Positions 39,134 to 41,146 of a stretch of DNA of 64,000 nucleotides are shown here, piece by piece. Position numbers and translations under genes: made by a program. The notes under the pieces are model-generated. The model did not search any database and had not been told where the DNA came from. It saw nothing but the letters and a program-made list of their open reading frames with translations. Position 1 is the stretch's first letter, and each line of letters opens with the position of its first letter. The stretch lies in NCBI RefSeq assembly GCF_009931435.1, contig NZ_CP043414.1; one strand, 5' to 3'. This stretch comes from Escherichia coli. GTDB lineage: Bacteria; Pseudomonadota; Gammaproteobacteria; Enterobacterales; Enterobacteriaceae.

Positions 39134-39145
39134 CACAACCTCTCT

Positions 39146-39176
39146 ATAAAAAAGGTGCTACGGCACCTTTTTTATT
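39146..39176 (+). terminator. Rho-independent terminator of the cyo operon
   Basis: aaaaaaggtgc-tacg-gcacc-ttttttatt directly after the cyoE stop. Confidence 0.75.
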
Positions 39177-39212
39177 GTCTGAGAACAGAGATACGGCTAA
39201 TAACCGTATCTC

Positions 39213-39241
39213 TTGACAGAGTGAGTATATGCACATAAATT
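39213..39241 (+). promoter_or_regulatory. Putative sigma70 promoter of the antitoxin-toxin operon
   Basis: TTGACA-N17-TAAATT about 75 nt upstream of the antitoxin ATG, immediately preceded by a 9-bp inverted repeat (gagatacgg-N7-ccgtatctc, 39188..39212). Confidence 0.4.
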
Positions 39242-39317
39242 AATCATTCGGTTGATAGCCGTATTATGCATGAGATCGACTCCCTACGATTTCATTCAGT
39301 TAATCAAAGAGGTCATA

Positions 39318-39629
39318 ATGCCTGGAAAAACAGTCGCTCTACCCGATATCGATAAAACGCTGAAAAATGCGCGGGTTGAACTCAAAACCAGTCCCGACGC
39401 CAAAAACAAACTTCGTGAAGCTGCGCAAGCCGTTGGGGTAGATTTAAGCGCTTTTATTTTGAGCGCAGCTATGGAACGCGCCGAAAGTGTGCTTGATAAC
39501 CAACGTCGCCGTGAGCTTTCGAATCAAAGCTGGGAACTGATGAACCAACTCATCGCTGAACCTGCTCAACCGACGCTCGCCCTCAAGGCGTTAATGAAAA
39601 GGAAAAACAGCGATGGTCGACAAGCATGA
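39318..39629 (+). CDS. Putative type II antitoxin, DUF1778 family (TacA/AtaR-like ribbon-helix-helix), 103 aa
   Basis: ATG 39318 preceded by RBS aaagagg; product MPGKTVALPDIDKTLKNARVELKTSPDAKNKLREAAQAVGVDLSAFILSAAMERAESVLDNQRRRELSNQSWELMNQLIAEPAQP... has the size and pattern of DUF1778 antitoxins; 17-nt overlap with the downstream GNAT gene. Confidence 0.75.
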   Translation: MPGKTVALPDIDKTLKNARVELKTSPDAKNKLREAAQAVGVDLSAFILSAAMERAESVLDNQRRRELSNQSWELMNQLIAEPAQPTLALKALMKRKNSDGRQA

Positions 39630-40155
39630 AGAGATTACTCTGCCCATAGTCCTCTCCTGTAATTATCAGTCTGATATTACTTATCCTGGGCAAAAACAGT
39701 TTGATTGCGGTAACCCTGTTATCGATAAATTTGTACGCGCATCGCTAAAGAAAAGTGTGCGTAATAGCGACTGTGCTGCTAAAGCACTTATTGACAGACA
39801 AAGTGGTGAACTGATTGGCATCTGTACTTTTACGGCATATTCGCTGGAAAAACAACGCGTTTCTGGCGTCCTTCAGGGTTCACAACCTTCAGAGATTGGT
39901 GTTGTCAGATTAGTCATGTTAGGGGTAGCGCGGAAATATCAAAAGCGGGGCTTTGGTCAGGACCTACTATGTGATTTTTTTGAACATGTAAAAATAATTC
40001 ACCGGGCATTACCAATTAAAGGGGTTTATCTTGATGCTGACCCTGCCGCCATTAACTTTTATACTCGTCTCGGCTTTGTTCAGCTTTCAGCGAGGCCCAA
40101 TGTTTTCGGTGCTGTACCGATGTTTTTAGCGATTCAGCATATTCTCGCGGCTTAG
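39613..40155 (+). CDS. Putative GNAT-fold acetyltransferase toxin (TacT/AtaT/ItaT-like), 180 aa
   Basis: MVDKHEEITLP...FDCG...RLVMLGVARKYQKRGFGQDLL...INFYTRLGF carries the GNAT acetyl-CoA motif (R/Q-x-x-G-x-G/A); start overlaps the antitoxin stop, typical of translationally coupled TA pairs. Confidence 0.75.
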   Translation: MVDKHEEITLPIVLSCNYQSDITYPGQKQFDCGNPVIDKFVRASLKKSVRNSDCAAKALIDRQSGELIGICTFTAYSLEKQRVSGVLQGSQPSEIGVVRLVMLGVARKYQKRGFGQDLLCDFFEHVKIIHRALPIKGVYLDADPAAINFYTRLGFVQLSARPNVFGAVPMFLAIQHILAA

Positions 40156-40210: not shown

Positions 40211-41146
40211 TTACCACTTTTGTTCAATTGCCCCCGCTTTCATCAGGTCCACATCCTTGCCTTTAATGGTTGCCGTTGCGGCAACCATTGTGGTCCTTAT
40301 TGCTGCACAAGATTTTCGTTCAAATTCCGGTTTATAAAGAATAAGCAACGAATTACTGGTAAATGAATCAAGCCGGTAATCTGTAAAGTTAATATCCAGT
40401 CGGTTTAAGCCGAAAGGTGCAAAGCCGACCGTTTGAATAGTTTCCTTACCTGACGGACTCTTGATGTTGTACGTAACACGAAGATTGGCCACTTCGCCTA
40501 ATTTATTGGTTTTGGCAAAGAGGCTATCCATGCAGGAAAAACCTTTATCTAAAAAATTATCCCGCATTCCAGAACGGGTAATCGTGATCACAGGTAACGT
40601 ATCGTCAACCGTTTTTCTGTCAATCATATCTTTTCGACAGGTGGCCATAAAGTCTTCCGGACCAGTATAAATGTGAACACCCTTATCAAGATATTCTTTC
40701 GCTTTACTACAATCCACCTCGACATACTGACCATTGGCGTACATCATGCCCAACCTGGACCATGCTAAATTCACACCGCGTTGCGTAGCCTGATTAAATA
40801 ACGCATACGCTTTGGCATAATCCACCCGCACCTGTTCACCTTCGTAGTAGATATCCCCCAGCGCTAACGGAGCTTCTTCATCACCTTGTTTAGCGGCTAA
40901 CTCGAACCATTTAATGGCTTCCTGAACGTTGGGTTTGGTATCGTAGCGGGGCTGATAATATTCCCAGCCTAACAGGCTTTGCGCGTCGACATCCCCCGAC
41001 TCAGCCATTTTATACAGTGTCCTTATCACATCGGGGGCAGGCTTTTCACTGTATATGCTGTCATACAATTCATGCGCTTTCTCGCTTGCCAGTGAACCTT
41101 GTGAGGCAATTAATAAAATAGCCAATAAACTCTTTTCATTTAACAT
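40211..41146 (-). CDS. Secreted Sel1-like repeat (SLR/TPR-like) protein with an unassigned C-terminal domain, 311 aa
   Basis: N-terminal Sec signal peptide (MLNEKSLLAILLIASQGSLA|SE); Sel1 repeats (LGWEYYQ..., LGDIYYEGEQVRVDYAKAYALFNQATQRG, LGMMYANGQYVEVDCSKAKEYLDKG); C-terminal 160 aa unrecognised; convergent with the TA operon. Confidence 0.75.
   Translation of the reverse strand: MLNEKSLLAILLIASQGSLASEKAHELYDSIYSEKPAPDVIRTLYKMAESGDVDAQSLLGWEYYQPRYDTKPNVQEAIKWFELAAKQGDEEAPLALGDIYYEGEQVRVDYAKAYALFNQATQRGVNLAWSRLGMMYANGQYVEVDCSKAKEYLDKGVHIYTGPEDFMATCRKDMIDRKTVDDTLPVITITRSGMRDNFLDKGFSCMDSLFAKTNKLGEVANLRVTYNIKSPSGKETIQTVGFAPFGLNRLDINFTDYRLDSFTSNSLLILYKPEFERKSCAAIRTTMVAATATIKGKDVDLMKAGAIEQKW

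Follow-up and report, generated by a model that had tools for sequence, protein, structure and literature searches.

Candidate ItaR operators on either side of the itaRT core promoter in Escherichia coli

Closest described systems and the itaRT locus

As in itaRT, the promoter of kacAT in Klebsiella pneumoniae serves an operon encoding a DUF1778 antitoxin and a GNAT toxin. The KacA4KacT2 complex was co-crystallized with the DNA AAATGTACGGTTATTAACCGTACATGA (PDB 5ZGN; PMC6698736), and in the KacAT structure one ribbon-helix-helix (RHH) dimer contacts each arm of the DNA via R8, D10 and R12, while the toxins join both dimers (PMC6698736). The native kacAT promoter, TTGAGT-17-TATATT-aaatg-TACGGAAAATAACCGTA, has the same core, TACGG-N7-CCGTA, and three plasmid loci encoding KacA-like antitoxins carry one perfect core each, directly after a -10-like hexamer. 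The ataRT system of E. coli O157:H7 also has this core, in the sequence TGTACGGTGACATACCGTACA, located 26 nt before the ATG in the native genome sequence. The passages of PMC6698736 and PMC8138530 that deal with the AtaR4AtaT2-DNA complex describe a toxin that places the DNA-binding domains of the antitoxin for tight binding; our comparison with AtaRT rests on the native sequence and on reviews. We found no second full-core site in the kacAT or ataRT promoters. Gel shifts on tacAT of Salmonella enterica indicate two TacA-TacT sites, at -81 to -46 and at -46 to -6 (PMC5449658), and a two-site promoter therefore has precedent in the family. The comparison of tacAT with itaRT made here covers the number of sites. 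The two systems differ in that acetylation is reported for TacA (PMC5449658) and was not seen for ItaR (PMC6125619).

We also noted that two KacA-like loci on IncF plasmids contain a degenerate site, TACGTGCTRTACCCGGA, with 2 mismatches (locus L030, ~696-712; locus L031, ~705-721). It lies 69 bp upstream of the perfect operator and about 18 nt before a -35-like hexamer, and could be a decayed upstream operator.

The itaRT system was first described from E. coli HS (PMC6125619). A 172-bp fragment from upstream of the genes drives ~40-fold reporter expression, and in vivo it is shut down by ItaR and ItaT together, not by ItaR alone (PMC6125619). The need for ItaT as well as ItaR is consistent with a repressor that the toxin assembles, the case in AtaRT and KacAT, and the toxin requirement of AtaRT matches the failure of ItaR to repress by itself. 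The system, its self-repression and the family operator core are already known. In the ItaT papers (PMC6125619, PMC7367177) we found no mapped operator sites, footprints or transcription start for itaRT, and a literature search on palindromic operators of DUF1778/GNAT systems gave no match.

We analyzed a stretch of 64,000 nucleotides from an E. coli genome (contig NZ_CP043414.1, assembly GCF_009931435.1), referred to below as the window. It encodes, on the plus strand, a TacA/DUF1778 RHH antitoxin of 103 aa (39318-39629; Pfam TacA1, 1.1e-17) and a GNAT acetyltransferase toxin of 180 aa (39613-40155), the two genes overlapping by 17 nt. The toxin is near-identical over its full length to PDB 7BYY (1.3e-115, residues 1-180), which is E. 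coli ItaT G115D (PMC7367177). Since the downstream gene matches ItaT, the pair is identified as itaRT. The antitoxin matches a protein of E. coli IAI39 with 100% identity. No ItaR chain was present among the PDB sequences searched; the closest PDB homologue is KacA (3.5e-11), a distant relative that differs from ItaR in having a shorter N-terminus, and AtaR is also among the nearest solved relatives. KacA R8, D10 and R12 align with ItaR R19, E21 and K23, one of them identical and two replaced conservatively, which makes the three ItaR residues candidates for reading bases. In IAI39 the antitoxin is annotated as a 125-aa form that starts at a TTG at 39252 (window 39252-39629), inside the second of the two sites described below. 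We favor a start at ATG 39318, giving 103 aa, from the N-termini of orthologues and the position of the conserved ribbon after the ribosome-binding site; a ribosome-binding sequence, AAAGAGG, is found at 39306-39312, ahead of this ATG.

Of 5,426 complete E. coli genomes, 1,371 (about a quarter) carry the itaRT locus, with cyoE as its neighbor every time. Genomes that lack itaRT retain cyoE and the terminator, followed by yajR. The intrinsic terminator of cyoABCDE (39146-39175, plus strand) consists of a perfect 13-bp stem (-17.2 kcal/mol, z -7.35) and lies outside the operator. A K-12-like genome has sequence in common with the window up to ttttttatt and then diverges, with the cassette junction at 39176/39177. 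This divergence right after 39176, together with the cassette-free genomes, indicates that the palindrome under study is part of the cassette and not of the cyo operon. The cassette is ~2.3 kb long (39177 to ~41520) and contains itaR, itaT and a Sel1-repeat gene (311 aa, 40211-41146, minus strand) between the cyoE terminator and yajR, where it stands in place of about 100 bp of K-12-type intergenic region. In strain FDAARGOS_1268 the Sel1/TPR gene is frameshifted. The ataRT cassette is found directly behind the livJ terminator, with its operator about 55 nt further on (locus L032, 556-590 and 645-665). Thus two unrelated GNAT-RHH cassettes are both positioned behind the terminators of well-expressed operons.

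Two copies of the family core at the itaRT promoter

The inverted repeat upstream of itaR was initially annotated as two 9-bp arms, gagatacgg (39188-39196) and ccgtatctc (39204-39212), separated by ctaataa (39197-39203), and we confirmed it at these positions. The perfect arms are larger, however, at 10 bp (39187-39196 and 39204-39213), and viewed as duplex DNA the repeat finder returns a 27-bp palindrome centered on 39200, with 13-nt arms complementary at 12 of 13 positions. Within this palindrome, which extends over 39187-39213, the candidate upstream operator core, O1, is ATACGGCTAATAACCGTAT (39191-39209), a 19-bp ATACGG-N7-CCGTAT with 0 mismatches. O1 and the KacAT crystal DNA have the TACGG-N7-CCGTA core and an AT-rich center in common and differ in the flanking base, TGTACGG in kacAT versus ATACGG in itaRT. 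The 9-bp arms were rejected as the functional unit: the inner ATACGG/CCGTAT is conserved, but the outer gag/ctc is not, these 3 bp being variable within E. coli and non-complementary in orthologues.

A second copy of the core is located 55 bp downstream. The initial annotation, which suggested an operator and placed O1 correctly, had missed this copy. O2, the candidate downstream operator core ATTCGGTTGATAGCCGTAT (39246-39264), is a direct repeat of O1 with 79% identity, and in the window allele it has 1 mismatch to ATACGG-N7-CCGTAT, in the left arm. Allowing up to one mismatch, ATACGG-N7-CCGTAT matches twice in the 64-kb window and both matches are in the itaRT promoter; 0.13 matches are expected in 64 kb, and two or more were seen in 0 of 100 shuffles. 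Together the two sites occupy the region 54-127 nt upstream of the itaR ATG.

Between the two sites lies the core promoter, for which the earlier placement proved accurate: a -35 hexamer TTGACA (39213-39218), a 17-nt spacer and a -10 hexamer TAAATT (39236-39241), all on the plus strand. The consensus scan scores this promoter 10/12, and the match by itself is not significant (2 sites in the scanned region versus 2.6 expected). The hexamers hold conserved positions across orthologues, with TTGAC kept in 13 orthologue loci and TAnnnT likewise conserved, in contrast to the spacer. A start-site distance of the usual 7 nt puts the predicted start of transcription at about 39248 (39246-39250). The antitoxin ATG follows the -10 hexamer by 76 nt, in agreement with an earlier estimate of about 75 nt. 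The O1 core ends 3 nt before the -35 hexamer. The first base of O2 is 4 nt past the -10 hexamer, and O2 therefore overlies the predicted start. The position of O2 corresponds to that of the single operator of kacAT, directly after the -10 hexamer. In contrast to itaRT, where two sites bracket the promoter, kacAT has no operator upstream of its -35 hexamer, and ataRT of O157:H7 has a single full palindrome upstream of ataR.

The published reporter fragment is given as -183 to -11, with a reference point that is ambiguous in the paper (PMC6125619). Numbered from the ATG, the fragment corresponds to 39135-39307 and has both O1 and O2 inside it. Numbering from the predicted transcription start would sever the -10 hexamer, and a fragment of that kind is unlikely to be active.

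Among six E. coli alleles the O1 core is invariant. Position 39210, in the outer arm just outside the core, is C, G or A, and of the few substitutions seen, three lie in the -35/-10 spacer. In its left arm, O2 reads ATTCGG in the window and ACACGG in FDAARGOS_1268; the common E. coli allele has ATACGG there and a perfect ATACGG-N7-CCGTAT as its O2. The hot spots of polymorphism are 39210 and 39247-39248. One of these positions, 39248, is itself the predicted start nucleotide, so that start-site choice or the strength of repression may vary among alleles.

Conservation of the sites alongside the antitoxin gene

Scanning one genome per species yielded 25 loci that encode ItaR relatives. Both sites are found in 13 of these loci, from 10 other Enterobacterales genera (among them Pseudocitrobacter, Edaphovirga, Phytobacter, Rahnella, Buttiauxella, Trabulsiella, Chimaeribacter, Serratia and Kluyvera), and 12 further loci have one site. 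All 13 two-site loci keep the same order: O1, 2-4 nt, TTGAC, ~17 nt, TAnnnT, 3-10 nt and O2. In an anchored alignment, the four arms and the two hexamers come close to the maximum information content, and the -35/-10 spacer and the flanks hold almost none, such that O1, O2, -35 and -10 are the only conserved blocks in the regions upstream of ItaR orthologues. The motif, with up to one mismatch, is found at 35 of 6,900 upstream positions in the Enterobacterales loci, versus 1 of 68,409 positions in the rest of these loci. The sites have the clade consensus RTACGG-CTRWYAG-CCGTAY. Their N7 center, whose positions played no part in site selection, is conserved and symmetric, with T/A at +/-2 in 33 of 34 distinct sites. 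Outside the core, arm complementarity in the orthologues drops to about chance.

O1 and O2 are 54-60 bp apart, most often 57 bp (about 5.4 helical turns), and no turn number is fixed. This variation speaks against strict phasing and hence against an obligatory contact between complexes on the two sites; we favor independent occupancy of O1 and O2 over such contact. The protein is conserved in parallel: over 22 orthologues with 56-96% identity, the ItaR strand KNARVELKTS shows little or no variation, and R19, E21 and K23 are strictly invariant in all 22.

Single-site loci follow other arrangements. In 11 Xenorhabdus loci only the O1-type site is present, beside a TTGCAT -35-like hexamer, and O2 is degenerate. 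The single site at the Superficieibacter locus is 56 nt away from where the protein match begins. By eye, we also observed one ATACGG-N7-(C/T)CGTAY-like site directly after TTGACA at each of three Nitrospirae loci encoding ItaR relatives (42-47% identity). In at least one of them, most clearly in L025 (~1430-1470), the site apparently fills the spacer before a -10-like TATAAC; the others are L026 and L027. Because these distant relatives keep the site, the recognition core seems much older than the enterobacterial layout.

A separate observation concerns the leader between O2 and the ATG, which is about 200 nt long in Edaphovirga (L004, ~1290-1500), one Rahnella rivi locus (L006, ~1290-1500) and Serratia PL17 (L012, ~1300-1500), versus 20-80 nt otherwise. 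By eye, a short reading frame of 17-21 codons that has a ribosome-binding site of its own is seen in the long leaders (MKFTANVFNLNRFRCIF, MRNQSKALNFSRFIKLS, MSLKKIQNLNNFKGIPFTGKR); it may encode a leader peptide or a third component.

Proposed autorepression and its alternatives

The palindrome is very probably O1, the upstream member of two ItaR operators, bound as ItaT-ItaR2-ItaR2-ItaT and autorepressing itaRT. The operator reading first offered for the repeat is supported by the core it has in common with KacAT and ataRT, by the second copy, by conservation in orthologues and by the published repression of the upstream fragment. Both sites lie in the promoter region just ahead of the genes for a DUF1778 antitoxin and then a GNAT toxin, their TACGG-N7-CCGTA arms are, with one mismatch in O2, those of the KacAT crystal DNA, kacAT and ataRT, they are conserved along with the antitoxin gene in orthologous loci, and ItaR has RHH beta-strand residues that align with KacA R8, D10 and R12. 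Operator binding is proven for KacAT, whereas for itaRT we infer the binding at O1 and O2, as well as the stoichiometry, the start site and derepression at toxin excess.

By homology with the KacAT-DNA and AtaRT-DNA complexes, each 19-bp palindrome would bind one ItaT-ItaR2-ItaR2-ItaT complex, with one ItaR RHH dimer on each arm and the toxin fixing the spacing of the dimers. If the footprint is 27 bp, as for KacAT, the complex at O1 would cover 39187-39213 and touch the -35 hexamer, and the complex at O2 would cover 39242-39268, right after the -10 hexamer, and span the start site. Complexes with these footprints would bracket the core promoter (39213-39241). Both would then exclude RNA polymerase, resulting in autorepression of itaRT. 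We note that O1 is upstream of the -35 hexamer, where a bound protein need not block polymerase, and since kacAT and ataRT work with one full operator, O1 could be auxiliary. We consider it possible, though rather doubtful, that the two hexamers clamp the core promoter, perhaps linked by toxin-toxin contacts, as a device of the ItaR clade that gives a sharper response to the toxin:antitoxin ratio than the single-operator kacAT and ataRT promoters have, or a shield against read-through from cyo.

The alternative that survives best, although improbable, is that ItaR-ItaT binds O1 mainly as a roadblock or insulator against upstream transcription, leaving O2 as the true repressing operator. The cassette does lie directly behind the terminator of a highly expressed operon, as ataRT lies behind the livJ terminator, and repression in the KacA/AtaR clade relies on one full operator, placed immediately after the -10 hexamer in kacAT. 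However, the gap of 2-4 nt between O1 and the -35 hexamer is tightly conserved, suggesting that O1 interacts with promoter recognition and is not a roadblock that works at any position, and it is the O1-type site, beside its -35-like hexamer, that the Xenorhabdus orthologues keep alone. We regard a roadblock role against cyo read-through as possible but secondary.

Still less probable is that the repeat works at the RNA level, forming a second hairpin after the cyo terminator that stops or pauses cyo read-through, the other possibility raised in the initial annotation. Folding of the transcript gives a possible stem of 10 bp around a 7-nt loop (-14.5 kcal/mol, z -4.05), located 12 nt past the cyo terminator, but no U-tract follows on the 3' side of the stem, where the next bases are CUUGACAGAG / CTTGACAGAG, and the terminator scan makes no call at the O1 hairpin. 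Nor does the site travel with cyo: cassette-free E. coli genomes have cyoE and the cyo terminator and lack the O1 sequence, and the same site occurs ahead of ItaR orthologues in unrelated genomic contexts. The pattern of conservation is also not that of an RNA stem, since the sequence itself is fixed with no compensatory changes, and the outer stem pairs are not retained across orthologues and vary within E. coli. Conservation and symmetry extend into what would be the loop, a feature that an RNA hairpin does not need. O2 forms no stable hairpin (-3.6 kcal/mol, z 0.39), and a search of Rfam gave no family above threshold, the best hit reaching 23.5 bits versus a gathering score of 55. With the U-tract missing and the site following the toxin-antitoxin genes rather than cyo, we rejected the terminator reading. 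The weakest alternative, a chance palindrome or a remnant of the insertion of the 2.3-kb island (a terminal repeat or integration site), draws on the location of the repeat just 11-15 nt from the left junction of the island but has almost no likelihood given a motif count far above chance, the second copy inside the promoter, conservation of the site with the antitoxin gene across genera and at other locations, and the lack of a matching copy at up to 2 mismatches at the right end of the island; the mobile-element remnant was rejected on the duplication within the promoter and the conservation alongside the gene.

Reading the palindrome as an ItaR operator leaves the general picture of type II toxin-antitoxin control unchanged. 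What it adds is the location and consensus of the proposed ItaR operators and the promoter-bracketing, two-site layout of the ItaR clade, with exact candidate sites at 39191-39209 and 39246-39264 and a consensus that holds across the clade. The DNA core read by KacA and AtaR is common to a much more distant branch of the family, which helps to predict cross-talk among the GNAT-RHH systems that coexist in enterobacterial genomes. Overall, the ItaR clade has two sites that bracket the promoter, kacAT and ataRT have a single site close to the start, and Xenorhabdus has a single site beside the -35 hexamer, a contrast well suited to comparing how operator number and placement tune autoregulation.
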